Shown piece by piece: positions 23,494 through 45,139 of a stretch of 45,139 nt of DNA; position 1 is the first letter of the stretch; each line of letters begins with the position of its first letter. The stretch spans positions 1-45,139 of the forward strand of contig CAZPJY010000015.1 in assembly GCA_964587045.1 (NCBI GenBank), in the 5' to 3' direction. Source of the DNA: an uncultured Methanosarcinales archaeon (GTDB taxonomy: Archaea; Nanobdellota; Nanobdellia; Woesearchaeales; CAZPJY01). A program made the position numbers and the translations under genes. The notes beneath the pieces are model-generated. The model did not search any database and was not told the DNA's origin. It saw only the letters and a list, made by a program, of their open reading frames with translations.

Positions 23494-23641
23494 TTACCTA
23501 ATCATTTTTCAGGCTTAATCTAACCTTTCCTGAATAATTTCTTTATATTTCGGATCAGATAGAGGTGTCAGGCTCAAAAAATCAGGGCAAGGTAGCAAGC
23601 CCTCAAATGTGCGGAAAATAGGCTCTAGAAGCCTTGAGAAG

Positions 23642-23651
23642 NNNNNNNNNN
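23642..23651. other. Assembly/scaffold gap (10 N)
   Basis: Run of n characters. Confidence 1.
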
Positions 23652-23696
23652 ATAGAGGCTTGCTCCCAGCCCCTGCAAAAACATGAGGTAATGATA

Positions 23697-24971: not shown

Positions 24972-25000
24972 ATTTTTTTATAATTTTTTGATGATACGAA

Positions 25001-26122
25001 ATGAGCCAAGCTAATTCAGTGACCCTTGAAGGAGAGGAGAAGGAACTCTATCTCAAGAGCCTAGACATAGCGCTCGACGCCATCTCCAACAACTTCAGGT
25101 CCGAAACCCCACGCGACCAGTTGAGCTTCATCAAACGGTACGGCGACGAAAAAAAGTGGGACTGGGACCGGATGCGCCCACTGGACGACTCGTACAAAAA
25201 CCTGGCTTCGATGATTGACGAGGTCAGGGCTCAGTTCGCCTGGTTCTCATGGATATACACAGACGAACCGTCCCAGAACAGGGGGTACTTCAAGAAGATA
25301 GGTGTCCGGACAGACACTGGGCTTCCGCTCTTCTACGATTTCATGAACCTCGAGAAGCTCAAGGTAGATGCCGACAAAAACCTGGGGGAACTGCCGACAG
25401 AAAAAGCATGCCTTGCGGAGCTCGAAAGGATAATCATGACTGACCACTGCAAGAAGAAAGACATCGGCAATGAGATCGGTAAGATCCACGATATCATGAT
25501 GAAGAGGTCATTCATCGAGAAGCTGAAGGATTCGGAGCTCATCGGATGGCGAACCTCAGACTACAAGGTCACGGCAAAGAGGATCATACCCCTCGGAATC
25601 GAGGAGCTATGGAACATCAATGTCATCAGCTACTCAGCGGGTTTCGGTCTGTTCCACATTTATGACATCGACCTCTGGCAGGACATCAGCGATCCTGTGA
25701 TAAAAGAGATGCATGAGGGGATCTACATAGCCCCAACCTTCAAGAACATGCTTTCCTTTTCAGACAGCAACTCAGCCTGGTACATCCTCTCAGATATTGA
25801 CCAGTCCTTCGAGAGCCTTCACCCGGTGCACGCCTCCCGGGCGGTAATAGGTCCGATGGTCCATTCCCACGCCCCGATCAGAGAGCATGACAGGCGCATC
25901 GCGATACTGGACCAGCTGGCAAAAGCTGACCCTCAGGCGAGCTTCCTGCGGGCCACAGTCCAATACTCATTCGCACCTAACCAAACAATCGAGGAGGAGA
26001 CAGTAAGACAGGTCATCCACCAGCGAGACTGGGAGGATGAAATACTGGTCGTACCTCCCAGGCACGCTCAAAAAGTCTCAAGCAGCCTCTTAGGAGAGCG
26101 CATCAGAATACTCGAAAGGTGA
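25001..26122 (+). CDS. Conserved-looking hypothetical protein
   Basis: 373 aa ORF in operon; TGLPLFYD and FESLHP...IGPM motifs. Confidence 0.8.
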   Translation: MSQANSVTLEGEEKELYLKSLDIALDAISNNFRSETPRDQLSFIKRYGDEKKWDWDRMRPLDDSYKNLASMIDEVRAQFAWFSWIYTDEPSQNRGYFKKIGVRTDTGLPLFYDFMNLEKLKVDADKNLGELPTEKACLAELERIIMTDHCKKKDIGNEIGKIHDIMMKRSFIEKLKDSELIGWRTSDYKVTAKRIIPLGIEELWNINVISYSAGFGLFHIYDIDLWQDISDPVIKEMHEGIYIAPTFKNMLSFSDSNSAWYILSDIDQSFESLHPVHASRAVIGPMVHSHAPIREHDRRIAILDQLAKADPQASFLRATVQYSFAPNQTIEEETVRQVIHQRDWEDEILVVPPRHAQKVSSSLLGERIRILER

Positions 26123-26127
26123 GAATC

Positions 26128-27915
26128 ATGGATATGATAATCGACGAACAGGTCGCAGAAAACTTGAAAGCGATCAAGAACATACTCAAGAATCCCAACC
26201 TCCACGACCCCCAAAGGAAAAAGCTGGGCTTCTACAAGGCTTTGGATGACGGCATTAACAACGGGACCAGGCCGGAGAGGGAGCAAATCAGCTACCTCGA
26301 AGCGTTCGAAACAGCGCTAACTGTATTCAAAGAGGCCTCGATCAAGCTAAGGACAGAGATGGACGTTCTGACCAAGGAGAGCAGGTACGAGGCCATAAAG
26401 AAAGGCATCGCAGACCGCATAGAGGTCATCTCAAGCGAAATCGTCGAAAGCCCCCACCTGGCAAAGTACAACCTCAACAATCATGACATAAAGGTCAATC
26501 TCGAAAAGCAGCTGCAAGGGGAGATCATCAATGCAGGAAAGGATGTCACAGACAGCATAATGTTCTCGAACAGGTACGCTCTGGCCTTCGCAGGACATGT
26601 AGGACTTGCTCTGCTAGACGCCGACAGGATGGACACCGACAAGTTGGCGGATCCGGGAAGGAAGTATGACATCAGCAAGGATTCGGACAAGATAGTGTCA
26701 CTGCTTTCGGCAACGGCAGCTGACGACCTCGAACAGATAATCGCAGACAAGAAGAAGGCCAACGAGGAGGTCAACAGCGATACACTCAAAGACTCCCTGC
26801 GCTTCACCTTCACGACCTGGACCAACCAGTTGAACTGGAACACCTTCAAGGACGTGGCAGAGAAGGAAAATATAGAGAAAGAAAAGCTCAAGTACGGCAA
26901 CTTCTCCATCATCAAAGGCGACTTCTCCAGGAAGCACGACCAGCTCGATATCGACAACAAGTTCATGGATGTCCGGAAGAGCGACATAATAGGCGCTGAG
27001 GAGTACGTCAACATCATATGGCAGCACCTACTCAAACTGGGCGGATACAGGCACGAGTTCAGGGACAATGCGGCCAACCCCGCGAAGGTTATTTTCACAT
27101 ACGGTGATCCTGGCTGCGGGAAGACCTTCATCTCCCACGCCCTGATAATGGAGTTCGCTGAGCTCTGCAAGAGGAAGGGATACCCGCTCAAAGCCCTCAC
27201 CCACAGCACCACAGACTACGCGTCATCATACCAAAACGCCACTGCCAACGCCCTCAACGAGCTCGCAGCCGAGATAAACGGGTTCCCGGGGCCTGTGATC
27301 ATGTACGTCGCTGACGCAGACAACATCTTCCTTGCCAGGTCTGATCCGTCGCTCACGGCAGAGCAGCGGCAGACCATGGGAGTCTACTTCAAGATGTTCG
27401 ACGGCACGTTGATCAAGAAGAACGGCAAGTTCCTGGCGATCATGGACGCCAACTACCTGCACAAGATAGACGGCGCCACGCAGAGCAGGCTCTTCGACGA
27501 GACCCTCAAGCTGAAACGATTCGAGAAGGCCGAGGACTTCGCAAAGCTGTTTAGGAAGACCCTTGAGAAGGGCACTGAAGGCACTGGAATCAGCGACAAG
27601 GAATGGCTCAAGATAGGCAAAAATATTCTTGACTCGCCCTTCCAGAACAGGGAGATCGACCACATAGTGAACCAGCTGAGAGGGTCTTACTCTGTTGACG
27701 AATCAATCTTCGACATGACGCACCAGCAGATAATCGACTCAAGGAACGCCCACATGAAATCGATATCATACAAGACGATAATGGGGAAAATCGAAGAGAA
27801 GATCAGCACCCTTGAGGAGATATCAGAGGACTCCCGCACGAAGGAGATACTGAACATCTACGAGAACAAGTGGAAGAAGCCCCAGACTGAGGAGCACGCA
27901 CCGAAAGCAAAATGA
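26128..27915 (+). CDS. AAA+ ATPase with atypical Walker B
   Basis: Walker A GDPGCGKT; Walker B position reads IMYVADAD; AGGTGA RBS before ATG 26128. Confidence 0.85.
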   Translation: MDMIIDEQVAENLKAIKNILKNPNLHDPQRKKLGFYKALDDGINNGTRPEREQISYLEAFETALTVFKEASIKLRTEMDVLTKESRYEAIKKGIADRIEVISSEIVESPHLAKYNLNNHDIKVNLEKQLQGEIINAGKDVTDSIMFSNRYALAFAGHVGLALLDADRMDTDKLADPGRKYDISKDSDKIVSLLSATAADDLEQIIADKKKANEEVNSDTLKDSLRFTFTTWTNQLNWNTFKDVAEKENIEKEKLKYGNFSIIKGDFSRKHDQLDIDNKFMDVRKSDIIGAEEYVNIIWQHLLKLGGYRHEFRDNAANPAKVIFTYGDPGCGKTFISHALIMEFAELCKRKGYPLKALTHSTTDYASSYQNATANALNELAAEINGFPGPVIMYVADADNIFLARSDPSLTAEQRQTMGVYFKMFDGTLIKKNGKFLAIMDANYLHKIDGATQSRLFDETLKLKRFEKAEDFAKLFRKTLEKGTEGTGISDKEWLKIGKNILDSPFQNREIDHIVNQLRGSYSVDESIFDMTHQQIIDSRNAHMKSISYKTIMGKIEEKISTLEEISEDSRTKEILNIYENKWKKPQTEEHAPKAK

Positions 27916-29294
27916 GACTGACGCTTAAGAAACTGATGAAGATACAGGAACTGGAAGAGATTGCTAAAGGCAAGACTGGAACCCTAGACATCTCAAAGCT
28001 GGAATCAGACTTCCTCAAGCTCTCTGAATGCATGACCAAGAGATCGCTACTGGTAACTCCCAAGCGGCTGTACAAGCTGGAGGGCGATGAAAGAGATCAC
28101 ATGAGGAAGGTGATGGAGGCGCTGGGCGAGCCTGGAGATCTTCCCAAGAGCGTCGACTTCTCAGGGGCGTTCGACTACAGGCCGTTCTCCGATAAGCTGA
28201 TAATCTTCTCGCTAGAGCAGGCATTATCTGCAGACCACCTGATTGACACCCGCTCCTACCTCAACCCAATCCTCTTAAAGGTCTATGGGGACGGCAAGAA
28301 CATGATCAGGGATTTCGCCATTAACGAGGCACTTTTTGGATATGTCACCATAACTAGGGGGAGCCTTGAGTTGAAAGATGTCCCATTCTTCCCTGAGAAG
28401 TTTACGGAGGGTCCGTACCAGCTCAGCGTGACGATAGACTCCCCAAACAACAGCGTCATGAAGTACCGGGAAATCAAGGAGTTCCTCGCCCAAGCCTCGA
28501 AGAATCCGTATATACTAAAGGACAAGGAAGAGATGGACAAGGTCGCAAATCATGCAATCGCCCTGCGCGAGGTCCTGGGCTCGCTTTCCAGGTACGATGA
28601 AGTCAAGGACAACGCATTCCAGGCCAACACTGATTCGGTCGTGCTAAGGGATGAGAGTTCAATACTGTACTACCTGCACAATGATAAGGGGAATTTCATG
28701 GTGTACTTCGGGGAGAACCCGTTCTTCGACGAACCCAGGAATCTAACAATACTTAACGGGGAGGATTTCCATCACACTCTCAAGACGCTCATTCAAAACG
28801 AGTTCTATGTGCCGAGCCAGCCAATCCTCGAGCAGCGCATACGCGACCTGAAGCAAACCTTCCGCGACGCAGCGCGTGCCAAGGTGATAACCGACCCAAG
28901 GGAGCATGACGAGTACAAGCATCTGCTCGAGGAGCTCGAGGACACCTTGGATTTTTTCAGGGGCGTCAGGAACGGCGAGGGTAGGAAGAACTACGTAATG
29001 AGCAAGCCGCCAGAGCTCGCAGAGTTCATGGTCTATCCGAACACCGAGGACCCTGTGGTGCACGAGCTCTTACCGAGGATATCATGGAACTCCGCAGTCA
29101 GGCACTACAATGACACCAGCGGTTTCATCAAGTCATTCGAGGATTCTAACGATAAGAAGAGGAAGAAGATGCTACAGGAGGTAGTGTCAAACATCACTTT
29201 CATCAACCAGCAGAACAACGACGTCAACAGCTGGCTGTATGCTAATCACAAGAAGACCTGCGAGAAGGCAGGGCTCACGTTTGAGCTAAGATAA
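27912..29294 (+). CDS. Hypothetical protein (possibly DUF6638-related)
   Basis: 460 aa ORF overlapping the upstream stop (ATGA); family guess is from recalled similarity only. Confidence 0.7.
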   Translation: MRLTLKKLMKIQELEEIAKGKTGTLDISKLESDFLKLSECMTKRSLLVTPKRLYKLEGDERDHMRKVMEALGEPGDLPKSVDFSGAFDYRPFSDKLIIFSLEQALSADHLIDTRSYLNPILLKVYGDGKNMIRDFAINEALFGYVTITRGSLELKDVPFFPEKFTEGPYQLSVTIDSPNNSVMKYREIKEFLAQASKNPYILKDKEEMDKVANHAIALREVLGSLSRYDEVKDNAFQANTDSVVLRDESSILYYLHNDKGNFMVYFGENPFFDEPRNLTILNGEDFHHTLKTLIQNEFYVPSQPILEQRIRDLKQTFRDAARAKVITDPREHDEYKHLLEELEDTLDFFRGVRNGEGRKNYVMSKPPELAEFMVYPNTEDPVVHELLPRISWNSAVRHYNDTSGFIKSFEDSNDKKRKKMLQEVVSNITFINQQNNDVNSWLYANHKKTCEKAGLTFELR

Positions 29295-29307
29295 GGAGGA
29301 AGTCAAA

Positions 29308-31590
29308 ATGAAAAAGAAAACTCTCGAGGATTATATTCAGAACATAAAGAACGGGCAGGACCTGATCAACAGGGGGGTAGTGCCCAAGGATTCGACCAAG
29401 ATGATGGCCATCGTCACCATGGAGAGGCTGAAGGCCATCAGGGACAGGCTAAAGGCAGGTATCGACGAGCACACCCTCGGCACTTGGGTCAACGCGATAG
29501 AGTCCCACCCGTCGAATATAGGACCTGAGATAACCAATCCCAGTCTCATCAGGAACTATGCGAAAAGCGGCATGCGAATCGAAGCCACAAGGGATGTCGG
29601 AGGGGCCAAGATAACAGGCAAGAAGGGACGCATAATAAGCGTCAGTAGAGGAAGCCCACAGCCCTACCAAATAGAGTTCGACAATGCGATAAAGGGCAGG
29701 ACCGGCACCAATCTTGGAGGTAGCGCCAAGTCCGGCCACGGCTGGTCGCTCACCAAGAACGACTTCAAGCTCATACTGGACAAGCCACTTGTGGTCGAGA
29801 GCGGCTACACGCTGGCGGAGGCAGTCATTGCCGACGAGAGGCAAGGCGCCATGGTCAGGTTCTCCAAAGACTATGAGGGAGCGATGTGGGACCGAAACGG
29901 CGATCAGATATATGTCAGCAAAAGGAAAATCCCAAAGGGAACCCTCGGAAAGCTCCTCAACGAGCAGGCCGGCAACCTCCTGATCAAGCTCTCTGAGCCT
30001 GTAAAGGAGATCGGCAAGCAGGAGTACGTGCGGGTCAAGGTAAAAGACGTCTACGACACGCTGGAGGCATCCAACCTCGGTCCGCACCTCCCAAAAAATA
30101 GGGAGCTGGAGATATTCAAGGAGTCGCTGCAGCAATTCCTGCCGACAGCTGTCCTGGATTCAGACACGGCTGAGGAGATAATCGTCGCTCTCCTCGCGGG
30201 AAACAAAGACCTCGGCTTCTACGGACCTTGGGGCGGAGGCAAGTCCTTCACCGGCGAGAACATACTGGAAGTCGCCAAGGAGCAGGGGGTCCTCATCAAG
30301 GAGAAGGACTGCCAGATAAACTGCAACCCTTTCAGCATCTTCGACGAGAACTACGCGAAGCTCGTGCCTCCCTGCTCTGAGTGCATGGAGAAGTACGACA
30401 GGAACTACAAGGAGACCGGAGTGTTCCACCCGCCCAGGCCTGAGGACGTGGAGGTCCAGGTCGTCAAGCTCGACATAGGGTTCGGCATCCAGACTGCTGA
30501 AGGAACGACCAAGATGCACCGCGTCGACATGGTCGGAGTCAAGCTCCCAGATTTCAGCGGGCAGGTTAACAAGGACACAAGAAGCTTGGATGGTTTCAGG
30601 TACGGGTTCCTCCCAAAGAGCAACAACGGCTACTTCCTGATTGAGGAGGCTGACAAGCTGCGCGAGGACACGCACAAGAACCTGCTGCAGGCCCAGAACA
30701 ACCAGAGGGTCAAGCCTGACGAGACCGACTTCTACCTGCCCTCGAACCAGCTCATGATTCTCACCGCCAACGACATAGCTGCCTTCGGCCCGGCGGAAAA
30801 CGATAGGTTCGTCTTCATATACATAGGCTACCCGACAGACCCTGATGTTGCTTATGACATCACGAAGGTCAGCTACCACAAGGAGCCGAGACCCATGATG
30901 GAGCTGGACATCGAGGATCCCCACCTCAAGCAACCTAACGGCACGCGGACGGTCCAGATTCCGGTGATACTGGAAAAGGCCATAGAGGCCTTCTACATCA
31001 ACTTCGACAGCAGCTACAAGGGCGAGGGAAAGGAGGTCATATCCCGCTCGACGAGATCGAAGTTCGACGCCCACGACGCCGCAAGGTCGAAGTGGATGGT
31101 CCATAAGCAGTTCATCGATGAGACTCCTGCTTTCCCGGACGAGGAGTTCGTGATGGAAGGCATAAAGTACGCCATGTGGTGGAGGGTCCAGGACCAGGAC
31201 TGGGAGTCATGCCTCAAGGCCAAGGACGACCTTACCAAGTTCATCTTCAAGGAGTTCCCGAAATACGTCACCGAGGAGGCGAAGAAGTGGTGGTGCGACG
31301 TCAATGAGGACATCGCGACCAAGATACCCCGCTTCCCTGGGATCAAGGAGGCCTACACACAGGAGATCGCCCGTTACCACAGCAATCCTGAGTCAGCTAT
31401 CGACAGCTTCAAGGAGGTCAAACAGGCGTACCTGCACCCACATGACGCCAAGGCCAAGGAGGCCCTGATAAAGAATCCATTCATGGACCTCCTCTTCGAG
31501 AGCCAGCCCCATTTCCAAACTACATCGGTAGAACAGGTGCCGGGGCTCGTTGAGTACCTGATATCATTCCAGCCGAAGATGAACAAATGA
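29308..31590 (+). CDS. MoxR/Mg-chelatase ChlI-like AAA+ ATPase with N-terminal extension
   Basis: GPWGGGKS, CQINCNP...PPCSEC insert, G.L.KSNNG.F.IEEADKL, TAN, DRF. Confidence 0.85.
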   Translation: MKKKTLEDYIQNIKNGQDLINRGVVPKDSTKMMAIVTMERLKAIRDRLKAGIDEHTLGTWVNAIESHPSNIGPEITNPSLIRNYAKSGMRIEATRDVGGAKITGKKGRIISVSRGSPQPYQIEFDNAIKGRTGTNLGGSAKSGHGWSLTKNDFKLILDKPLVVESGYTLAEAVIADERQGAMVRFSKDYEGAMWDRNGDQIYVSKRKIPKGTLGKLLNEQAGNLLIKLSEPVKEIGKQEYVRVKVKDVYDTLEASNLGPHLPKNRELEIFKESLQQFLPTAVLDSDTAEEIIVALLAGNKDLGFYGPWGGGKSFTGENILEVAKEQGVLIKEKDCQINCNPFSIFDENYAKLVPPCSECMEKYDRNYKETGVFHPPRPEDVEVQVVKLDIGFGIQTAEGTTKMHRVDMVGVKLPDFSGQVNKDTRSLDGFRYGFLPKSNNGYFLIEEADKLREDTHKNLLQAQNNQRVKPDETDFYLPSNQLMILTANDIAAFGPAENDRFVFIYIGYPTDPDVAYDITKVSYHKEPRPMMELDIEDPHLKQPNGTRTVQIPVILEKAIEAFYINFDSSYKGEGKEVISRSTRSKFDAHDAARSKWMVHKQFIDETPAFPDEEFVMEGIKYAMWWRVQDQDWESCLKAKDDLTKFIFKEFPKYVTEEAKKWWCDVNEDIATKIPRFPGIKEAYTQEIARYHSNPESAIDSFKEVKQAYLHPHDAKAKEALIKNPFMDLLFESQPHFQTTSVEQVPGLVEYLISFQPKMNK

Positions 31591-32225
31591 TGAAGATCGA
31601 GGATTACCGGCGCGTCGACTGCAAGCTCTACCGCACTCCGCCCCTCGACTTCAGCGAAGTCACAAGGGCGGCCCGGGATGCGCTTCTGGAGGCGTGGAAG
31701 CATGAAATCTCAGCAGGCAGAGCCATCGAAGAGCTTTTAGAGGGCGATCTCGCCAAAGGTCTCGCTGAACAGATCAGGGAAAACATCGAGTTCCAGGCCA
31801 GAAACGAACAGGCACAGTTGGACACGTACTACGGAAAGCAGATCGAAGCGCTGCAGAACGGAAAGGAGAAGAAGATCGGCTCGATCGATGAGAAGTACAA
31901 GAGTCTGCTGGAAGAAAGGGAAAAAAAGATCAGCTCGGCCAAGGAGGCTGTCGAGAAGGTTGAGAGGGGCTACGACGCGAGCACCAGGAAGCTGGGCGAG
32001 CTGCAGGAAGAGCTGGCACGGAAAATCAAGGACATGGGCGGCATCGAGAAGTACAACCAGCTGCAGGAGATAAAGGACATGCTCCTCGACGACCAAAAGA
32101 AGCCGCCGAAGAAGAAGGTCAAAGAGACCATAGACACGCTGATCGTAGCAGACAAGAAGGTGCGCAAGAAGGCTGCCCGCAGCGTATGGCGCCGCATCTG
32201 GGACCACATAAGAGAGTACTGGTAA
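31587..32225 (+). CDS. Coiled-coil protein
   Basis: Translationally coupled; E/K-rich heptads; amphipathic basic C-terminus (RSVWRRIWDHIREYW). Confidence 0.75.
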   Translation: MMKIEDYRRVDCKLYRTPPLDFSEVTRAARDALLEAWKHEISAGRAIEELLEGDLAKGLAEQIRENIEFQARNEQAQLDTYYGKQIEALQNGKEKKIGSIDEKYKSLLEEREKKISSAKEAVEKVERGYDASTRKLGELQEELARKIKDMGGIEKYNQLQEIKDMLLDDQKKPPKKKVKETIDTLIVADKKVRKKAARSVWRRIWDHIREYW

Positions 32226-32227
32226 GA

Positions 32228-33580
32228 ATGGCAGACATCCTAACAAAAAGCCTGGAAGATTTCGTCAACCTGTTCGCCAGGAAGTACAAGAGGAGCAAGC
32301 TCTTCCAGAACAAGGTGCTCAATTACCTGGACATCGGTAAGATCCAAAGGCTCGACTTGGGCGTCTCGAAGAGGTTCCTGAAGGGGAGGTACCAGAAGAA
32401 GACTGATGAGATAATCAGGAACTACGCCACTCTCGTTTACAAAGACCTCAAATCCGACGACGTAATCGAGGAAAAGGCCGAAGAGCTGCAGGAGACCGCA
32501 GACACAAAGGAGGAGCACGAAAAAAAAATCGCAGAGACCAAGGAGGCCATCGAGAAGACCTCGAAGGATCTTGAGGAGTCAAAGGTCACATATGAACAGG
32601 AGAAGCTGCAGACGGAGCAGGGCTTCACCGAACGGATACAAAAATCCGAAAGTCAGAGGCTCGAGAAGAGGCAAGAGATCGCACAAAAAAACGACGTCGA
32701 GGAGATTGTCAAGAAGACATTCAAAGACCACCTGCAGTCGACAGGGCTTGTTAGTTTGAATGAGGCGGGCGAGCTTGCCTTCGACGAGCGCCAGATGATG
32801 GACGCGCTCGAGGACAGCTTCCTCGAGGAGATACTCAACGGAATAAACTCGAAGCAGAGTGGTTTTATGAGGAAACTGAAGCGTCGTTACGACGGCCTGA
32901 TCAACCACTTCGACGAGATAGAGGACCCCAACCAGATGGCTGAGGCCAACTGGACTCTTTCGTATATCAATTCAGTCTCCAGGGGGTACAGGTATCCGAC
33001 CTACCCGTTCATAGTTGTGCCGAAACGAAGCAGGCTTGATAAATGCTACCTGGACACCGCGCTTGCCATCGATTCAAGCGGCAGCATGTGGGATAACCAT
33101 CGCTGGGATGCTGCTGTGAAGGTCACCCTTGCCATGCATTCGCTTATGAGGAAGCTCAACCCCAATAACAAGACTTACCTAGCCCACTACTGTTACAGGC
33201 TTCAAGCCCTGGATACGATAACGTTTTACAAGACCATAAAGCCCGGCGGAGGAACCAGGACCAACGAGGCGCTCGAGTGGCTGCTCGAAACCCTCGACCC
33301 TCACGTCCCTTCACTAGCTATCCTCACAACAGACGGCTCTCCTGACGACGTGGACTTGGCAATAAAGGCAGCTAAAAGATTCAAGGAGAGGCCGCTGACA
33401 CTCCTAAGCATGTTCCTAATCGACGGCAACGCGAGGACTGAGAACATCACAAGGAAGCTCGGGAAGGCTGCCGGCCCGGACACGACGGTCATCCCGGTCA
33501 AGAACTACGAGTTGGCTGCAGGAGTAATACTTAACGTTCCCTCCATGCTCAAGAAGATGTATAACATCACAAATTTTTGA
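32228..33580 (+). CDS. Coiled-coil + VWA domain protein
   Basis: MIDAS motifs AIDSSGSM, GGGT.T..AL, ILTTDGSP. Confidence 0.88.
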   Translation: MADILTKSLEDFVNLFARKYKRSKLFQNKVLNYLDIGKIQRLDLGVSKRFLKGRYQKKTDEIIRNYATLVYKDLKSDDVIEEKAEELQETADTKEEHEKKIAETKEAIEKTSKDLEESKVTYEQEKLQTEQGFTERIQKSESQRLEKRQEIAQKNDVEEIVKKTFKDHLQSTGLVSLNEAGELAFDERQMMDALEDSFLEEILNGINSKQSGFMRKLKRRYDGLINHFDEIEDPNQMAEANWTLSYINSVSRGYRYPTYPFIVVPKRSRLDKCYLDTALAIDSSGSMWDNHRWDAAVKVTLAMHSLMRKLNPNNKTYLAHYCYRLQALDTITFYKTIKPGGGTRTNEALEWLLETLDPHVPSLAILTTDGSPDDVDLAIKAAKRFKERPLTLLSMFLIDGNARTENITRKLGKAAGPDTTVIPVKNYELAAGVILNVPSMLKKMYNITNF

Positions 33581-35172: not shown

Positions 35173-36918
35173 ATGAAAAGCCTACCCGTAAGGTCAGAGG
35201 ACATAGATCCGACCAGAATCGTTGATACCTCCAGGTACGACCTATTCAGCCTGGTAGGGGAAGGCAGCTGGGGGATAGTGTGGAAGGCATGGGACAAGCG
35301 CCAGCACCAGGATGTCGCGATAAAGATCATCTCTCCCACGGATGAGGCCGCGGCCCAGATGGCCCTCCGCAACCTGACCTACGCAAAAGCGGTGCAGAAG
35401 GAGACAGGCAAGCTCGCCGCGTGCTCGCACGTAGTCCCCAGAAGGGAAGAGACCTCGCCCGAGGGCGTCCCCTACCTGGTAATGCCATTCTACTCCAGCA
35501 ACTTCGCACAGCATATTGAAACAGAGAGGAAGCAAAACGAAAAAGTGACATACTATGACAAAACCAAGACTGGACTTCTGCTCAAGGACATAATAGACTG
35601 GTTCAGCGACATCGCCGCAGGCATATCAGAGATACACTCAGAATACCACAGGGCGCACGGGGACATCAAGGAGGACAACATCCTCGTGGACAATAAAGGC
35701 AAGTTGCTGCTGGGAGACCTGGGTACCTCAACCTGCGCGACCGTAGGCCGCTCGGTGTCCCCAAGGCACCACATGGGACACGTTCTGACCAGGGACCCGA
35801 GGATGTTTGCAGACGGAGCCCATCCGGATTTCAAGTCTGACTACTTCGCATTCGCAAGCCTCATGTACAAGATGTTTTCCGGCAAGCACCTGCTCGAGGA
35901 AGAGATAGGGGCGGCTGGTCCCAGGGGCATAGACGGCCTGATGCATTCTTTTACTGATGAGGAAGGGGACCTAAACTCTAAATTCCACTCTCTCCTCGAG
36001 GAACGGGTAGGCAAATCTGAGATGCCCGACGAGTTCAAGGACCTGATAATGATGATGTACGGCAGCAAAAGTACTGAGACGCTCGAGCTTTCCCTCTTCG
36101 AAAAATTCGACCTGGACAAGTGCTACAGGAGAGCTGTCAGCGCATACCAAGACAGGATGTCCAGGACCGCGGGCAAAAGGGAGCTGATTAGCAAGATGAA
36201 GAGGTGGGGGCGCAATATCGCATTGGCTACATTCATCGGGGCAAGCATTATTGCAGGATGCCAGTGGATGAATTACCTTTCGCCTCCTGACACCTTCGGC
36301 CGCGAGGAGATAGAGTACCGCCTCACCAAGAGAATGGCAGCCGATGCGGACATCATCCTAGAGACCGAGAAGGTGTACGAGCCTTACATGAAAGCAGAAT
36401 TCGTAGGACCTGTCCCGTTCAAGGATCTGCTGGACTACCACCTCAAGAAGATGGTCCCGCACTCAGTGGTGGATGAGATGATCAAAGTGTGGCTTGAGAC
36501 GTGCAACGAGACTGGCATCGACGCGCTTCCTCGCAACATGAGGCAAAGGGAGATGGCCATGCCGCCGCAGCTCATGGGAGTACCTGAAACCGAATACAAA
36601 GCTGAATACCAGACGCTTAGTGACAGGCTCAAGGATATGCTGCCTGTGTTCCTTGGAGCCTGCCAAAAGGATCCCTTCTCGAAAGTTATCGACCTGGAGG
36701 ACGCTATCGTGCTCTGCCTCGAAGGGCCCCAGAAACTGAGGTACCTGAAGAGCTCGTCTGAGAGCACTGATTTCGGCGCATACAAGGACGCGCGGGATTC
36801 TCACGGCAATCAGATGCTGTATTTTACGTACGCACCGTTCATACAGCAGTTCATTTACAACATCCAGCAAAACGAGATGCTAGGCAAGCTGGTCCGCGTA
36901 AAGGGGGCGGAAGGATGA
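35173..36918 (+). CDS. Hanks-type Ser/Thr protein kinase with TM helix and C-terminal domain
   Basis: GEGSWGIV, VAIK, HGDIKEDN, DLG; TM IALATFIGASIIAGC. Confidence 0.9.
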   Translation: MKSLPVRSEDIDPTRIVDTSRYDLFSLVGEGSWGIVWKAWDKRQHQDVAIKIISPTDEAAAQMALRNLTYAKAVQKETGKLAACSHVVPRREETSPEGVPYLVMPFYSSNFAQHIETERKQNEKVTYYDKTKTGLLLKDIIDWFSDIAAGISEIHSEYHRAHGDIKEDNILVDNKGKLLLGDLGTSTCATVGRSVSPRHHMGHVLTRDPRMFADGAHPDFKSDYFAFASLMYKMFSGKHLLEEEIGAAGPRGIDGLMHSFTDEEGDLNSKFHSLLEERVGKSEMPDEFKDLIMMMYGSKSTETLELSLFEKFDLDKCYRRAVSAYQDRMSRTAGKRELISKMKRWGRNIALATFIGASIIAGCQWMNYLSPPDTFGREEIEYRLTKRMAADADIILETEKVYEPYMKAEFVGPVPFKDLLDYHLKKMVPHSVVDEMIKVWLETCNETGIDALPRNMRQREMAMPPQLMGVPETEYKAEYQTLSDRLKDMLPVFLGACQKDPFSKVIDLEDAIVLCLEGPQKLRYLKSSSESTDFGAYKDARDSHGNQMLYFTYAPFIQQFIYNIQQNEMLGKLVRVKGAEG

Positions 36919-38447
36919 GCATCAAGATAAAGCTTCCAATCAGCGCGTATGATATCCAGAAAGCCTTGGGCAAGGAGACATGGAAAGGCGTCGTCCTAGG
37001 CAGGAAAAAGACCGACGGCTCATCATGGGCCCTGAAGTTCTACGAGCCCAGCGAGACAGCGAGGAAACAGGCAGAGGAGCGCAGCCTCACCCTCGAGGAG
37101 TTCTGGCGAAAGGAGGTGCTGGGGGGACTCAACCGCGGCTACACCAACCTTGCCTTCAACACCTTGGAGAGGGCTGACAACGGCACGGTGTTCCTAGCTG
37201 AGGAATACATCGACCGTTTCCTTTCCGACTATCTGGAAGTCCAGCCGTCCCTAACCCGGGATGAGGTGCTTTCGGTTGCCAAAGGGCTCGCTCAAGGACT
37301 GGCTGACATGCACAGGCACGGCTTCACCCACGGGGACCTGAAGCCTGAGAACATAGGCTACACACTTGACGAAATAGTGAAGATTTCTGATTACGGCACG
37401 TCCAGCGTGTTCTCCAAGGAGCAGAAGAACAGGCGCGACAACATGGGACACCTCCAGACACGCGCCCCTGAGAACTTCAGAGAAGGCAGCAAGCCGACAC
37501 CCAGTAGCGATGTGTGGTCGTTCGGCGCCATGATATACCGGCTCATCACAGGGGAGTATCCCTTCGAAGAAGAGCTGAAGAATAATCCTGACTACTTCAA
37601 AGGCATCAACGAAGGGAGTCTGCAAAAAAACACCATCTCCTCCAGATTGAAGCAACTGCAGCAGAAAGGAACAAGCCAAGAGCTGCAATGCCTAATCGAG
37701 GACTGCCTGCAGCCCGACCCCAGAGCCCGTCCAAGCGACGGAAGCGAAGTGGTCAAGAGGCTAACACAATTGATGCCAAAGGAGCCGTTCATGGTTACGT
37801 TAGGCAAGTCCTTCAAGAGACATCTGGGCTGGCTTGTGCCTGTCGCAGCGCTTTCGCTCTCTTGGTACGCAGCTGCGACGCACGAGCCGAGCAAGCTAGC
37901 CTGGCCCGAAGCGGAGCAGGTGGGGCCAATGGAAATGTCTTCAGAAAAAGAATATCAGGTGAAGCGGGAAAACCTAGGGCAGGAACCGATAACCTGCTTC
38001 ATAGGTTTTGACCAGCTCTCGGTCAAGTGCGCGACCAACGACAAGCGCGTCGCCTACTTACTTCAGACCCATGACCAGGCCTGGCACTACCTCGGGGTAC
38101 TGAGATCCCCGGAGAGGAAAAACAACGCTCAGATAAGCATGTGGTGCACTTACACCCCTCAAGGAGAAAGGTTTCCTGGAGATGGAGGGAACGATTACAG
38201 GGTCATCGCAAAGGCGATCGAGGTCGGCCTATCAGAGGGCATGTCGGAGGACGGAGCGCTGGATCTTGAGGACGCCTTGACCATCTCACGGGTCGGTGTC
38301 AAAACGCTCAGGCAGGCGCAGAAGGCCGCAAACAGCTTTGAATTTATGGATTACATCGCAGCCAGGAACAGCAGCGGAGAATACATCATCCCAGAAAAGG
38401 AGCAGCGGTTCATCAAGACCTGGCTTCGGCTGACCTTCATTGACTAG
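36915..38447 (+). CDS. Second Hanks-type Ser/Thr protein kinase with TM helix and C-terminal domain
   Basis: WALK, HGDLKPEN, DYG, RAPE, SDVWSFG; TM LGWLVPVAALSLSWYAAA. Confidence 0.9.
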   Translation: MSIKIKLPISAYDIQKALGKETWKGVVLGRKKTDGSSWALKFYEPSETARKQAEERSLTLEEFWRKEVLGGLNRGYTNLAFNTLERADNGTVFLAEEYIDRFLSDYLEVQPSLTRDEVLSVAKGLAQGLADMHRHGFTHGDLKPENIGYTLDEIVKISDYGTSSVFSKEQKNRRDNMGHLQTRAPENFREGSKPTPSSDVWSFGAMIYRLITGEYPFEEELKNNPDYFKGINEGSLQKNTISSRLKQLQQKGTSQELQCLIEDCLQPDPRARPSDGSEVVKRLTQLMPKEPFMVTLGKSFKRHLGWLVPVAALSLSWYAAATHEPSKLAWPEAEQVGPMEMSSEKEYQVKRENLGQEPITCFIGFDQLSVKCATNDKRVAYLLQTHDQAWHYLGVLRSPERKNNAQISMWCTYTPQGERFPGDGGNDYRVIAKAIEVGLSEGMSEDGALDLEDALTISRVGVKTLRQAQKAANSFEFMDYIAARNSSGEYIIPEKEQRFIKTWLRLTFID

Positions 38448-39357
38448 TCTTCTCGACTATCCGCGAGAGTATCGGGCTCGCTCCCACCTGGATGAGGCGG
38501 TATAACTCCCTGATTTGGGAGAGCAGGATTGTCTGGTCGCCCTTGCCCTTTGCCATCGAGTCCAGCAGCCCTCCGAAATGGTATTTCCTGCGGAGGCTAT
38601 TCAGCCTGTGTATACTGGAGATATCCTCCTTGGTGAAAGCCTGGTAGAACAGTTCATAATAGCCTTTCAGTCCGGCCAGGTATTCGTTCACTTCAGCGCC
38701 GGGCTTGATCTTTCTGTCAAGCGCTGTCTTATATATATAGTAATAGGAATGCTGGAAGTGCATCAGGAAGGTCAGGAGCTCCCAGTCAAGCACCGGGTTG
38801 TGCTCGTACTTCTCCCTGATCAGGACACGCCTGCAGAACAGCACGAACCTGTCCTGCTGCGTCCTAAGAGTCGATACCGCTCCCATGCGTTCGAGCCTGC
38901 TGGAGGTGAAGTCCTCTGTAACCACGTTGTGCATCTCCTTTACCATGAGGAAGATCCGGCGGAGCAGGGCGTCGTACTTCTCGTCTGTCGGCTCTGAAAT
39001 GTTCTCTATCGTACACCCTCCGGGTGTCCTGTCGGTCACCTCGAATCCTAATAGGGACTCTGCTGTGAATTTTTCGATGCGTCCGATCCCGGGCTCATCC
39101 AGGCCGATTATCCTTACAGAGTCCATACCATTCCTGTACATGTGGGACAGCAGTGTCTCCAGGTCAGCACGGTTTTGGTCCGTTACCTCGATTGTCGCCT
39201 CCTTTCTCTGCCTGACAGCGGTGCCGACTATGAGGTTGACGCCGTCGTCGGATATCTCGACCTCCTCTCCGGAAGACAACCCTTTCCTGTCGATCCACTT
39301 CTTGGGCAGGTATATAGTGAATCCTCCTCCGCCCTGCTTAATAAGCTTCCTTCTCAT
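38437..39357 (-). CDS. Archaeal AbrB-PhoU-type transcriptional regulator
   Basis: N-term RKLIKQG....IYLPKKWI...L..G.EV (AbrB), Y..G.D.V.I, GFEV, helical PhoU-like C-terminus. Confidence 0.85.
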   Translation of the reverse strand: MRRKLIKQGGGGFTIYLPKKWIDRKGLSSGEEVEISDDGVNLIVGTAVRQRKEATIEVTDQNRADLETLLSHMYRNGMDSVRIIGLDEPGIGRIEKFTAESLLGFEVTDRTPGGCTIENISEPTDEKYDALLRRIFLMVKEMHNVVTEDFTSSRLERMGAVSTLRTQQDRFVLFCRRVLIREKYEHNPVLDWELLTFLMHFQHSYYYIYKTALDRKIKPGAEVNEYLAGLKGYYELFYQAFTKEDISSIHRLNSLRRKYHFGGLLDSMAKGKGDQTILLSQIRELYRLIQVGASPILSRIVEKTSQ

Positions 39358-39482: not shown

Positions 39483-40928
39483 ATGATGGATGAAACATCA
39501 TGGAAAGAGAAGGCCCTGAAGGCCATGAAGATTCTAGAAACATTGTCCCAGCCCCCCCTCCAGCTGGCAACGGTAGTGGGCGTCGACGAGAAGACGGTCG
39601 AAATCGGCATGCCTTCCGGGGCGCAGTACATCGTCCATTACGACCCGCGCCTGAAAGGAAAGCTCAAGCTGGGCCAGGACGTGCGAATATCGCCCGAGTC
39701 CTACGCAGTGGTGAGCATAGAAGGCAAGGTGAGGACCCACTCCGCAGCAGTTGTTGAAGACGTCCTCAAGGACGGAAGGGTCAAGATATCCTCGCCGAAA
39801 GGGGAAAAGGTGATCCAGACCGCAGTCGAGGTCAAGGCAGGCGAAAACGTCATCGTCGACAACAGCTTCAGCGTCGTCCTGGAGAACCTGGGCAACAGCA
39901 GCAAGGCATACAGCATAGAGAAGGTGCCCAAAGTCCCCTGGAAAAGCATAGGCGGGCTTGAACAGACCATATGCAAGATAAAGGAGACAGTCGAGCAGCC
40001 ATTCCTCTACAAAGAAGTGTATTCGAAGTTCCCGACTAGGCAGCCCCCGAAGGGCGTGCTGATCTTCGGACCGCCCGGATGCGGAAAGACCATGATAGGA
40101 AAGGCTATAGCCTACAACCTGGCAGTCCGCATGCGAGAGAAGGAGAACAAGGACGTGAACGGATACTTCCTCTACGTGGCAGGACCGGAATTCCTGCAGC
40201 GCTTCGTCGGAGTCGGCGAGGCCAAGGTCAGGGAGCTCTTCGGCAATGCGCGGGAGACCGCCGCGCAGAACGGTGACCCGGTCGTCATCTTCGTCGACGA
40301 GCCTGAAGCAGTGCTCAGACAGAGGGGCACGGGCAAGTCATCGGACGCCCACGACTCGATAGTCAACCAGTTCCTGGTGGAGATGGACGGGCTCAACTCG
40401 CTGGAGAATGTGATGGTACTCCTGGCGACCAACAGGCACGAGCTCCTGGACTCAGCGGTCGTGAGGCCAGGAAGGATAGACAAGAAGATCTATGTCCCGA
40501 GACCCGACCAGCAGGGAGCAGAGTCCATATTCTCAATCTACCTAAAGGACCTGCCGCTGCACAGGAAGGGCTTCAACAGCAAGCCTGTCAAGCAGTACGC
40601 CCAACACGCAGCTTCACAGGTGTTCGAAAAGCCAAGGCCGGTGCTGGAAGTGAAGTACATGGACGGCAACAGCGACACTATCCACTACAAGAGCATGTTC
40701 AGCGGCGCAAGCGTGGTGTCCATAGTCAACAGGGCCATAGACTTCGCCATCAACAGAGGCATCAAGGGGAAAAGCTCAGAGATAGTTCTGGATGACCTGA
40801 CCGACGCAGTCGAGATGGAGTACGAGGAGAACAGGGCGCTGCACAACCAGTTCACGCCGAATGATATGCGGGACGTCGTGGGTGACAATTTCAAGCAGAT
40901 CGTGGAAGTCACAGCTGCCTACAGGTGA
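39483..40928 (+). CDS. arc: Proteasome-associated ATPase ARC/Mpa
   Basis: LSQPP then tandem OB-like region; GPPGCGKT; YFL...GPE; RGTGKSSD; RPGRID; ARC-specific LEVKY.DG...SGA.V.SIV.RA...AI and E..EN..L....P.D. Confidence 0.92.
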   Translation: MMDETSWKEKALKAMKILETLSQPPLQLATVVGVDEKTVEIGMPSGAQYIVHYDPRLKGKLKLGQDVRISPESYAVVSIEGKVRTHSAAVVEDVLKDGRVKISSPKGEKVIQTAVEVKAGENVIVDNSFSVVLENLGNSSKAYSIEKVPKVPWKSIGGLEQTICKIKETVEQPFLYKEVYSKFPTRQPPKGVLIFGPPGCGKTMIGKAIAYNLAVRMREKENKDVNGYFLYVAGPEFLQRFVGVGEAKVRELFGNARETAAQNGDPVVIFVDEPEAVLRQRGTGKSSDAHDSIVNQFLVEMDGLNSLENVMVLLATNRHELLDSAVVRPGRIDKKIYVPRPDQQGAESIFSIYLKDLPLHRKGFNSKPVKQYAQHAASQVFEKPRPVLEVKYMDGNSDTIHYKSMFSGASVVSIVNRAIDFAINRGIKGKSSEIVLDDLTDAVEMEYEENRALHNQFTPNDMRDVVGDNFKQIVEVTAAYR

Positions 40929-42733: not shown

Positions 42734-42916
42734 ATGGAAGACCAAAAACAAATTTACCAACCGGGCGAAGAGCCCAACAAGGAACTGTACACAGGCAAGA
42801 AGAAGCTAGACCAGGTTAAGAAGCTCAAGAATGAAAATAGCCTTCTGGACGGGCTTGATAAGTTGGTCTCGAAAGGCAACCTTGCCGACCAGTACAAGCA
42901 GCAGGGCGGCCAGTGA
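42734..42916 (+). CDS. pup: Prokaryotic ubiquitin-like protein Pup (60 aa, C-terminal GGQ)
   Basis: ATG 1 nt after the dop stop; MEDQKQ...NSLLDGLDKLVSKGNLADQYKQQGGQ matches the Pup C-terminal pattern LLDEID.VL......YVQKGGQ. Confidence 0.9.
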   Translation: MEDQKQIYQPGEEPNKELYTGKKKLDQVKKLKNENSLLDGLDKLVSKGNLADQYKQQGGQ

Positions 42917-42918
42917 GG

Positions 42919-44661
42919 ATGGATCCCATCTTCACTTTCGTTCCTTCTTATGGAAGGAAACGGATATTCGGGACGGAGAACGAGTATGGGGTAGGTGGAA
43001 GGACTCGGGGCCTGCCTGGTTTCATCGCAAACGGCGGAAAGATCTACTCAGACTGTGGCCATATCGAGTACGCGACGCCCGAGTGCAGCAACCCGCTAGA
43101 AGCGGTGATCTACAACAAGGCAGGCGAGCTGCTGGCGCAGAAGTATGCAGACAAGATATACAAAAACAACGTCGACTCGAGGGGCAATACCTTCGGGGCT
43201 CACGAGAACTATTTCACAAAAGCCAGCTTTAAACGACTCAGGACCGTAATTCCTTTTCTGGTAACGAGGCAAATCTATGCCGGAACAGGAAAGCAAATGC
43301 GATACGGATTCAGCATAAGCCAAAGGTCATGTCACATTGAAAAAAATGAAAATAGTACTTCTTCAGATCACCGTGCGATTCTTTGCACCAAGAAGGAGAG
43401 TCTTGCAAACGATTCCGAATGGATGAGATTGCATCTAATACTTGGTGATGCCAACATGTCAGAGGTCGCTGAGTTCCTGAAAATCGGGACTACAGGTCTG
43501 GTTCTTGACCTCGTGGAGGACGGGTTGGAACCACGATTAGAATACAACAATATTTACTCAGTACAAGATCTGCACTCAATCTCAGAATCTACCTCAGACT
43601 GGCAAATTCGTCAGGGAGAAAAAGCCACAGACATCCAAAGGGGATACTTAAAAGCCGCAAAGAAGCACTACAAGGGACGCGACGAGATAACAGACACCAT
43701 CCTCGCCCTGTGGCAAGACACCCTAGACAAGCTCGACCGAGACCCTTCAGCGTTAATAGGCCGCGTGGACTGGATCACCAAGAAAGCCTTGATTGATCAG
43801 TACGCACAAGCCAATAATCTGGATATGACAAGTCTGATTCTCAGAAATATCGACCTGCAGTACCACGACACGGACCGAGAAAGGGGCCTGTTCTACGCGC
43901 TGCAAAAACAGGGCAAAGTGGAGCGGCTAGCAACAGACGAGATGATAAAGCATGCTATGCACGTGCCGCCCAATGACACTAGGGCTTCTCTTAGGGGTGC
44001 ACTCGCTAAGCAGAGTGATATATATAGAATTGAGTGGTATTCATTTCATCTGAAGAATTTGGTTATTCAATTAGCCGACCCATTCCAAGCAGAACTAAGT
44101 GAAGAACAAAAAGAGAGGGTAGCAAACATCAGAACTGACCTCCCAAAAGATTACCTTAAGAAGCTGGACCGGCTACCTAAGGACTGTCTCAATCTCATAA
44201 CGCAGGATATTCTCAAATTTATTGTAATAAAAAATTCGTACTCTCAGAAGTATGTGTACCAACACTTGTATCCAGCCGAGGATAAGCTTCCAAAACCTTA
44301 TATGATAATCCAGGTAGAAAGGAACCTTGGCAAAGAGATAGGCAGCATGCCGGATAGATACTTTTACGGTGGTACTTTAGACCAAGTCCCACTCAAAACC
44401 AAAGGGATAATCAACCGTGTTGAAAATGGATGGTTCCATAACAAAATAGAGGCAATTTTGGAAAACGGTCGTACTTGGGCTCTGGAGGGAGAGGAGGTAG
44501 CGCTCTTCTGCATCGATAAAAATATCAAAGACTTGGTTGAAGACCTAACCTCCCACGACATCTCTTTCAAAAAACAGATAGACGAAGTAATCCACGATAA
44601 AGTTCTCATAACAGCAGTCAACAACAGAGACGTTTTCAGGAGGATGTGGGAAGATGAGTGA
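42919..44661 (+). CDS. pafA: Pup--protein ligase PafA-like with ~190 aa C-terminal extension
   Basis: RIFGTENEYG, NGGKIYSDCGHIEYATPEC (no Dop loop), KNN.DSRGNTFGAHENY, PFLVTRQ, RLHLILGDANMSE, DLQYHD, PP.DTRA.LRG. Confidence 0.85.
   Translation: MDPIFTFVPSYGRKRIFGTENEYGVGGRTRGLPGFIANGGKIYSDCGHIEYATPECSNPLEAVIYNKAGELLAQKYADKIYKNNVDSRGNTFGAHENYFTKASFKRLRTVIPFLVTRQIYAGTGKQMRYGFSISQRSCHIEKNENSTSSDHRAILCTKKESLANDSEWMRLHLILGDANMSEVAEFLKIGTTGLVLDLVEDGLEPRLEYNNIYSVQDLHSISESTSDWQIRQGEKATDIQRGYLKAAKKHYKGRDEITDTILALWQDTLDKLDRDPSALIGRVDWITKKALIDQYAQANNLDMTSLILRNIDLQYHDTDRERGLFYALQKQGKVERLATDEMIKHAMHVPPNDTRASLRGALAKQSDIYRIEWYSFHLKNLVIQLADPFQAELSEEQKERVANIRTDLPKDYLKKLDRLPKDCLNLITQDILKFIVIKNSYSQKYVYQHLYPAEDKLPKPYMIIQVERNLGKEIGSMPDRYFYGGTLDQVPLKTKGIINRVENGWFHNKIEAILENGRTWALEGEEVALFCIDKNIKDLVEDLTSHDISFKKQIDEVIHDKVLITAVNNRDVFRRMWEDE
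43043..43127 (+). repeat. 85-bp repeat copy 1 (within pafA-1)
   Basis: 84/85 identical to 44787-44871 by manual comparison. Confidence 0.9.
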
Positions 44662-45139
44662 GCCATTGTTCACATCGGTTCCCAAGTACGGGCGGCAGAG
44701 AATATTCGGAACAGAGAACGAGTACGGAGTAAAAGACTGGGACGGACATCTCGAGGAAAGAGAATTCATATGGAATGGTGCGCGACTCTACTCAGACTGT
44801 GGCCATATCGAGTACGCGACGCCCGAGTGCAGCAACCCGCTGGAAGCGGTGATCTACAACAAGGCAGGCGAACTTATCGCGCAGAGATATGCAGGTAAGG
44901 TCTACAAGAATAATCTGGACTGGAAAGGGAACGCCTTCGGAGCGCATGAGAACTACTCAGGTAATGCTAATGCCAGAAATATTCTCAAGGCACTCCCCTT
45001 CTTGGTGACCAGGCAGATATTTGCCGGCTCAGGCTGGCTTTTGTCAAACGGAGAGTTCCACGTATCCCAACGCAGTCACCTTATGGAATATTTATATAAT
45101 GGTCTGTCCATGTGTGATAGGAGCATCTATAATATTAAG
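44654..45139 (+). CDS. pafA: Second PafA-like paralogue (3'-partial, not in the ORF track)
   Basis: Manual translation MSEPLFTSVPKYGRQRIFGTENEYG...NGARLYSDCGHIEYATPECSNP...KNNLDWKGNAFGAHENY...LPFLVTRQIFAGSG...SQRS; open to the window end. Confidence 0.88.
   Translation, partial: MSEPLFTSVPKYGRQRIFGTENEYGVKDWDGHLEEREFIWNGARLYSDCGHIEYATPECSNPLEAVIYNKAGELIAQRYAGKVYKNNLDWKGNAFGAHENYSGNANARNILKALPFLVTRQIFAGSGWLLSNGEFHVSQRSHLMEYLYNGLSMCDRSIYNIK
44787..44871 (+). repeat. 85-bp repeat copy 2 (within pafA-2)
   Basis: 84/85 identical to 43043-43127. Confidence 0.9.

Follow-up and report, generated by a model that had tools for sequence, protein, structure and literature searches.

The DNA analysed here (the window) is the entire 45,139-nt contig CAZPJY010000015.1 (C15) of an uncultured DPANN archaeon, probably of the Woesearchaeales (assembly GCA_964587045.1), whose 1.6-Mb genome (G000) is rated 100% complete. 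The last 5.7 kb of the window encode ARC, Dop, a Pup-like tag ending in Gly-Gly-Gln, the ligase-type protein PafA1 and the start of a second one, PafA2, with PafA1 adjoining pup within the arc-dop-pup operon (Table 1); the reading frame of PafA1 opens at a GTG at 42913. A preliminary description of this DNA had reported at least two tandem ligase paralogues. Both are present in the window and score above the Pfam cut-off, and a third, PafA3, lies on contig C23. As judged from sequence, the genome probably has three ligase-type copies, PafA1, PafA2 and PafA3.

Table 1. Features of the Pup operon and its neighbours in the window
Feature	Position	Strand	Basis
ARC/Mpa-type AAA+ ATPase, 481 aa	39483..40928	+	TIGR03689 best NCBIfam match
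Dop-type deamidase/depupylase, 598 aa	40936..42732	+	Pfam PF03136, 451.8 bits
Pup-like tag, 60 aa, ends Gly-Gly-Gln	42734..42916	+	alignment with syntenic small genes
PafA1, 580 aa from ATG: ligase-type core (aa 1-389) and 191-aa tail	42919..44661	+	Pup_ligase match
PafA1 alpha/extended loop (aa 137-168), putatively contacting targets	43327..43422	+	between R185 and R219 equivalents
PafA1 C-terminal extension: helices, SH3-fold domain, helices	44086..44658	+	AlphaFold model
SH3-fold domain, ~70 aa (aa 458-528), mobile module, not in Pfam	44290..44502	+	homologues and model
PafA2, first 162 codons, cut by contig end	44654..45139	+	frame open at end of window
Regulator-like gene, divergently oriented, syntenic operon neighbour	38437..39357	-	weak MazE/AbrB-type N-terminus
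Two tandem Ser/Thr kinase genes	35173..38447	+	Pfam PF00069

Searching the genome for the ligase gave two further matches, both at the end of C23. At the outset of its minus strand, C23 encodes 443 in-frame residues (29493-28162) starting where PafA2 breaks off; on the PafA1 scale the N-half of PafA2 and this C-half are non-overlapping, in frame and about 4 codons apart, and they are the only orphan halves of the family in the genome. The C-half is followed on C23 by genes of 226 aa and 129 aa, PafA3 (434 aa) and orfX, a 100-aa gene with no Pfam match (25814-25515, minus strand; 15815-15516 in L001). orfX also follows pafA in genome G326 (27% identity) and in the metagenome locus L092 (48-50%), where the order is kinase, regulator, arc, dop, pup, one pafA and orfX. 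Because the PafA2 halves are complementary and orfX is syntenic in L092, C15 and C23 are very probably adjacent, the ligase gene having multiplied inside a conserved frame. PafA2 ends at the contig edge without a stop, and was therefore cut by the assembly. No overlap of 20-40 nt was found between the end of C15 and other contigs, and four public read runs gave short operon pieces, mostly at least 99% alike, none of which crosses the end of C15. None of the three copies has an internal stop and a matching second half exists for PafA2, which speaks against its being a truncated pseudogene, a possibility raised in the preliminary description; the contig extension and paralogue count proposed there give three copies by way of the probable join. 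We consider orfX a candidate dedicated partner or target of the ligases. Three short tandem genes sharing a start motif (AYDMPNG or similar) also occur further downstream on the minus strand of C23 (24903-23907).

PafA1 and PafA2 are 60% identical over 160 aa and have in common a 169-nt stretch of 85% identity (43043-43211 and 44787-44955). DNA patches 77-94% identical between the copies, the C23 parts included, have low synonymous distance, and suggest that the conserved parts of the copies were homogenised by gene conversion.

We read the three copies, on sequence, as ligase-type though not orthodox PafA. With a Pfam cut-off of 25 bits for Pup_ligase (PF03136), PafA1 scored 337, the N-half of PafA2 117, its C-half (as P0057) 155, and PafA3 283 bits. 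PafA1 has a glutamine-synthetase-type fold (Foldseek to 4BJR, E 1.6e-31), and a close homologue of it is named from a Nanoarchaeia archaeon. When active-site residues were mapped on PafA numbering, as had been proposed, the metal, ATP and catalytic residues were kept in all copies: 1) the equivalents of E16, E18, Y62, D64, H68 and E70 in PafA1, PafA3 and the PafA2 halves taken together, and 2) those of H130, R185, R219, H221, R418 and W440 likewise in all three copies (R185 of PafA2 was read from a separate alignment, the first aligner having skipped it). Across 129 bacterial rows these residues vary little or not at all. The GhExE motif is present, with Lys at the R60 position of PafA1. All three copies are without the Dop-loop, with spacers of 13, 15 and 16 aa versus 87 in the genome's own Dop, and the position of R227, described as essential for Dop in passages of PMC10465538, holds Lys or nothing. 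The spacer is 12-23 residues in 24 of the 26 clade rows measured, versus a median of 36 in actinobacterial-type PafA, and thus leaves no room for helix alpha-1.

Trees agree with this placement. The copies cluster with single-copy ligases in a clade distinct from Dop, both in a 27-row tree (SH-aLRT 100; fragments and three near-duplicates left out) and in a 26-row N-half tree (97/91), and they also fall outside the Dop clades in a C-half tree (P0022 and P0023 left out). No paralogue therefore groups with Dop in any of the three trees, contrary to another possibility raised earlier. The clade that holds the copies stands by itself and may join actinobacterial PafA at the deep forks; the three copies may be monophyletic (p-AU 0.51 and 0.59 in the C-half and N-half trees), and the 27-row whole-gene quick tree placed the PafA2 C-half with P0006/P0019.

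A model docks Pup residues 35-60 in the groove and active site of PafA1 with a score of 0.84 (best control 0.00), 89% contact agreement and a partner pLDDT of at least 58; the docking mark was reached by 116/157 solved pairs and 2/215 mismatched pairs. Since a like complex (4BJR) has been solved, the model shows likeness, not binding, and its pass is likely owing to that likeness. At the modelled Pup interface 32 of 39 residues (~82%) of PafA2, and as many of PafA3, are identical to PafA1. The corresponding figures are 183/279 and 179/279 for the rest of the core (the cores of the copies are 61-69% identical) and 7/29 and 6/32 for the loop, where identity is 19-29% overall. This loop is the target-contact element in bacterial PafA, as described in parts of PMC10465538 and bioRxiv 10.64898/2026.04.10.717840, and it is here that the copies diverge most, in line with the substrate-specific ligases suggested in the preliminary description. 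Passages of the latter source also give the loop as strictly conserved in bacterial PafA, with R201A and R207A nearly abolishing pupylation. Both PafA1 and PafA2 have Arg at the equivalent of R201 and Lys at that of R207. The segments singled out earlier as divergent counterparts of NTRDEPHA, CTKKESLA in copy 1 and RSIYNIK at the edge of copy 2, are in place, but the change from NTRDEPHA and the R207-to-K change are clade-wide and mark no paralogue, the Lys being found also in the single-copy PafA of L092 and in 8/129 bacterial rows. Five pair comparisons gave dN/dS of ~0.07-0.21 with dS near saturation, from which it follows that the copies are old and have been kept by purifying selection.

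Copy 1 had been described as continuing about 190 aa past LADPF, and its tail is indeed 191 aa long and contains an SH3-fold domain. For aa 393-580 the AlphaFold model has a mean pLDDT of 67.6 (helices 45-61, SH3 block 80-95); a first model left the tail unfolded (pLDDT <50), and the fold was obtained with a domain alignment. Among 1.84 billion representatives, the last 188 residues found 7 further proteins (E<=0.001), each of them aligning to a single 70-residue stretch. The SH3 module, single or repeated, is present in 12/401 order genomes (two weak, one of these with stops), its hosts being unknown proteins and radical-SAM proteins; on a ligase it occurs in three separate genomes or contigs, and P0004, a ligase with an intact site, carries it (E ~1e-7). 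The top fold match of the tail domain is 4TSE, a repeat of Mind bomb 1 (rmsd 2.7, 65 residues), and the first by Foldseek is the CPH domain of CUL7 (E 0.023). Pfam SH3_15 (PF18346) weakly matched 3/8 members of the module family (best E 0.001), the PafA1 domain not being among them. In the ESM Atlas no usable match was found for the PafA1 tail, and a relative gave only leads below 0.9, one with SH3_15 on 29% of its members. The likeness to Mind bomb is suggestive and does not imply homology. PafA2 has its own tail of 200 aa and PafA3 has none. No homologue of the PafA2 tail other than itself was found among 630 candidates; its match to the SH3 module is weak (3.5 bits, above all 300 shuffles; hhalign probability 14.5%), although by eye it may be called SH3-like, and the tail of P0026 gave 1.5% with hhalign. 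In G237 (C1, 20543-23823; L216, L226 and L231) three neighbouring genes each start with this SH3-type module, and P0123 and P0124 have two and three repeats of it.

These data led us to a reading to which we give an even chance: that the ligase copies share a single Pup and a single Dop but differ in the range of targets they take, as determined by the loop and the tail. Dop would deamidate the single Pup(Gln), and each ligase copy would bind the same Pup, activate it with ATP and join it to a target lysine. The targets accepted would differ between copies through the differing loops and C-terminal add-ons, two copies bearing unrelated or distantly related add-on domains, and the SH3 fold would recruit a partner. 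ARC would unfold the tagged proteins and may feed the archaeal 20S of the host. Target specificity of the copies is an inference; copy 1 is the most likely to be active and copy 3 the least.

Several observations weigh against this reading. On family membership, PafA1 (262.6 bits) and PafA3 (209.9 bits) fall below the cut-off of 551.3 of the PafA model TIGR03686, and the Dop model TIGR03688 gives every copy a better score, again below its cut-off (277.8 versus 492.3 bits). Most PafA signature residues listed in Table 1 of PMC7947786 are missing: by eye, PafA1 has 2/9 of the PafA alpha-loop signature (H188 and S195, out of H188, W190, E191, G192, S194, S195, A196, R199 and S200) and 1/9 of that of Dop. 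The V65 insertion, L63-D64-V65-G66-S67 and A72-T73-A74 are also wanting, all three copies having A-T-P and D-C-G-H, the latter as long as in Dop though the His95-Ala96 of Dop is absent. As to the loop, that of PafA3 is 8 residues shorter and has no equivalents of R201 and R207, PafA1 shares only 11/32 loop residues with the single ligase of L092, and mean loop identity among the 26 clade rows is 0.32-0.33 at core identity of 0.4-0.7. A further point concerns the preliminary description: the unusual leader with GTENEYG that the copies were said to share is present as quoted but not peculiar to them: by eye, the lead-in P-x-Y-x-R-x-R-I-F-G recurs in most of the 26 clade rows, the single-copy L092 included, with 4/26 rows unmatched owing to short or different N-termini. 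For the tails, the Z of 7.2 to 4TSE is below 8 and tied with the unrelated PetP, the SH3 fold has many uses, and in G781 a tail of 242 aa is borne by the only ligase, so that tails do not need paralogues.

Since the variability of the loop is clade-wide, relaxed constraint explains it too. An improbable alternative built on this is that the locus is unstable and accessory, its duplicates arising, drifting and vanishing, with the loop under relaxed selection and the tails chance fusions. Its patchy presence would fit: Pup-ligase-family genes were found in 10/401 order, 5/401 class and 9/401 phylum genomes (overlapping sets), and in 1/4, 1/7 and 1/114 genomes within three families. All that is left of pafA at the syntenic position in G326 is a remnant, the gene of G009 has an internal stop, many unrelated proteins contain the SH3 module, and GC3 is lower in the pafA genes (0.53-0.62) than in arc and dop (0.73-0.77). 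Against it stand the age and purifying selection of the stop-free copies, the three separate occurrences of the SH3 domain on a ligase, and the corresponding loop of the adjacent Dop genes, which stays at 0.71 identity.

Comparison with relatives bears on whether every copy ligates. The order dop-pup-pafA was seen in five loci, with three copies in G000, two in G236, one each in L092 and G781, and a contig ending inside pafA in G392; collection scans, whose listed matches were mostly bacterial, added L092 as the one locus of use, besides a copy of C23 itself. The two ligases of G236 are sisters (99 in the 27-row tree, 98/90 in the C-half and 100/98 in the N-half tree) apart from the G000 clade, and hence stem from a separate duplication. 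P0004 and P0014, on contigs both 115,820 long, are sisters in the C-half tree (96/81). Here too some findings tell against our reading: the N-half tree does not pair P0004 with P0014, nor does the C-half tree make sisters of P0005 and P0016, and the first G236 copy (699 aa), which carries the SH3 module (E 1.7e-10), is catalytically dead, having lost the equivalents of E18, D64, H68, E70, R185, R201 and R219 while its frame stays open. The second (540 aa), beside it, is intact. That some copies could be inactive, as first proposed, is thus borne out in G236.

The dead copy suggests a rival that is rather unlikely though not negligible, namely that one general working ligase (PafA1, perhaps PafA2) is accompanied by poorly or non-ligating copies that bind Pup and ATP and act as regulators, sinks or adaptors, possibly as heterodimers. 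PafA3 would suit such a role, since its loop is short by 8 residues and has neither arginine, whereas its Pup interface is kept (32/39). So may the domain-swapped dimers that block the active site of bacterial PafA, reported in part of bioRxiv 10.64898/2026.04.10.717840, by analogy. However, every metal ligand and the catalytic Asp are kept in PafA2 and PafA3, the dead G236 copy has only 11/39 of the PafA1 Pup-interface residues (20/39 in its intact sister) and may not bind Pup, and the dN/dS of ~0.54 of that pair also fits decay.

It had also been proposed that the array belongs to a conflict or defence system. In such a system the ligases would tag viral or host-cell proteins, and the turnover of loop and tail would be an arms race. 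The patchy distribution, repeated duplication and domain gain could be taken this way, as could the loop itself: binned by core identity, loop identity at core 0.5-0.7 is 0.33 in the clade versus 0.52-0.93 in four bacterial groups (0.42-0.53 at core 0.4-0.5), the groups being mixed, e.g. with some Dop-length rows in the PafA group. A PADLOC 2.0.0 scan that covered PafA1, the second half of PafA2 and the four small genes of C23 matched no family for any of them, the neighbourhood matched only generic kinase and AAA, and the locus has a fixed chromosomal place in three lineages. We therefore regard this role as very improbable.

Compared with the actinobacterial Pup-proteasome system (Mpa/ARC, Dop, Pup, PafA and PrcBA; 4B0T/4BJR, Dop 4B0R), the locus has the same arc-dop-pup-pafA order, a Pup ending in Gly-Gly-Gln, and the same fold and metal and catalytic residues. 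It differs in that i) it is in an archaeon with three ligase-type genes and only archaeal 20S genes, ii) its ligase copies have no helix alpha-1 region, a hypervariable loop and add-on C-terminal domains, iii) Lys replaces R207 in the archaeal clade, and iv) the N-terminal helix of ARC is short. The UBact system (Nitrospirota, Armatimonadota, Poribacteria and others) likewise has a tag outside the Pfam Pup model and a ligase with a Dop-length D-x-G-H loop, but forms a clade separate from the archaeal copies. It was reportedly described by Lehmann et al. in 2017, with one archaeon said to be mentioned there. Among the best 80 of 597 bacterial loci, each up to ~21 kb, none had more than two family genes of at least 330 aa (49 had two and 31 one). 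Passages of PMC12288473 and bioRxiv 10.64898/2026.04.10.717840 speak of one ligase per Pup system, and state as an open question how a single PafA chooses hundreds of targets; the part of PMC2588565 that lists phyla with Pup systems names only bacterial ones. No report of pupylation in DPANN archaea or of several Pup ligases was found in the literature searched, subscription papers and supplements (e.g. that of PMC7947786) lying outside the search. Like the REP/SH3_15 repeat of Mind bomb (MIB1) and the CPH domains of eukaryotic E3 ligases, the tail domain is an SH3-type barrel, although it is only 12% identical to Mind bomb REP. The REP repeat of Mind bomb binds substrate. Mind bomb is named an E3 ligase in its PDB title.

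As for the other genes of the operon, ARC scored 381.6 bits with TIGR03689, below the cut-off of 504.75, and ends in Ala-Tyr-Arg, which is presumably HbYX-like. Its N-terminal helix is only ~20 aa (39483-39560, before the OB domains), equally short in L092, the ARCs of G236 and G781 having longer coiled-coil leaders; given this short helix, recognition of Pup by ARC may differ. Dop has a long Dop-loop region (the 87-aa spacer after GxExE) and GLQTT..RP..NTRDEPHA, and groups in trees with the Dop-position genes of L092 and G236. The Pup-like gene had no match in Pfam and NCBIfam scans; it can be aligned, at 23-52% identity, with small genes occupying the equivalent position in 4 other loci, and no second Pup copy was found in a search of the whole genome. 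Genes for the archaeal 20S alpha and beta subunits are present on other contigs, whereas the bacterial-type proteasome genes that two relatives possess have no close match in the genome. The regulator-like gene, which we take to be PhoU-type, has an N-terminus matching PF04014 below the cut-off (E 0.0016), and its homologues adjoin the locus in L092, G236 and G326. At the position of the window kinases, L092 has one kinase and G326 a kinase-like gene. A sigma-70 promoter scan gave chance-level results and is ill-suited to archaea.

Some further observations concern the surroundings and the relatives. A six-gene run on the plus strand of the window (23634-33580), not common to other Pup loci, comprises coiled-coil, unknown, AAA ATPase, unknown, a 760-aa ATPase-like protein with SH3-looking stretches, coiled-coil and vWA, and resembles what we assume to be a MoxR-vWA-type module. 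In G236 (L200, 8221-11271) a 1016-aa Dop has a C-terminal leucine-rich-repeat extension, and its Pup ends in Ser-Ala-Glu. A second kind of Pup operon exists in the same order (L202 7343-14250 in G156, and L203 in G354), in which the ligase is placed divergently and proteasome genes of bacterial appearance are included; a separate contig of G354 bears a third member of the family. In L205, L206, L208 and L212 (G042, G368, G094 and G684) a single Pup-ligase-family gene stands without any clear Pup or ARC in the surrounding DNA retrieved.

Three copies with a common Pup and different loops and add-ons would make the rules of target choice testable by swapping loops and domains, and might yield narrower ligases for Pup-based proximity labelling; the predicted ligase without the alpha-1 region would be a working core of reduced size. 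The reach of the system is limited by its rarity and by its belonging to uncultured archaea. More broadly, we put forward, as a tentative view with the chances somewhat against it, that this is a natural multi-ligase Pup system in which several ligases share a single tag and a single eraser, a fast-changing loop and added SH3-type recruiters setting the target range of each, with dead copies as adaptors. If this is true, a layer of specificity like that of E3 ligases would have been reached independently of ubiquitin.

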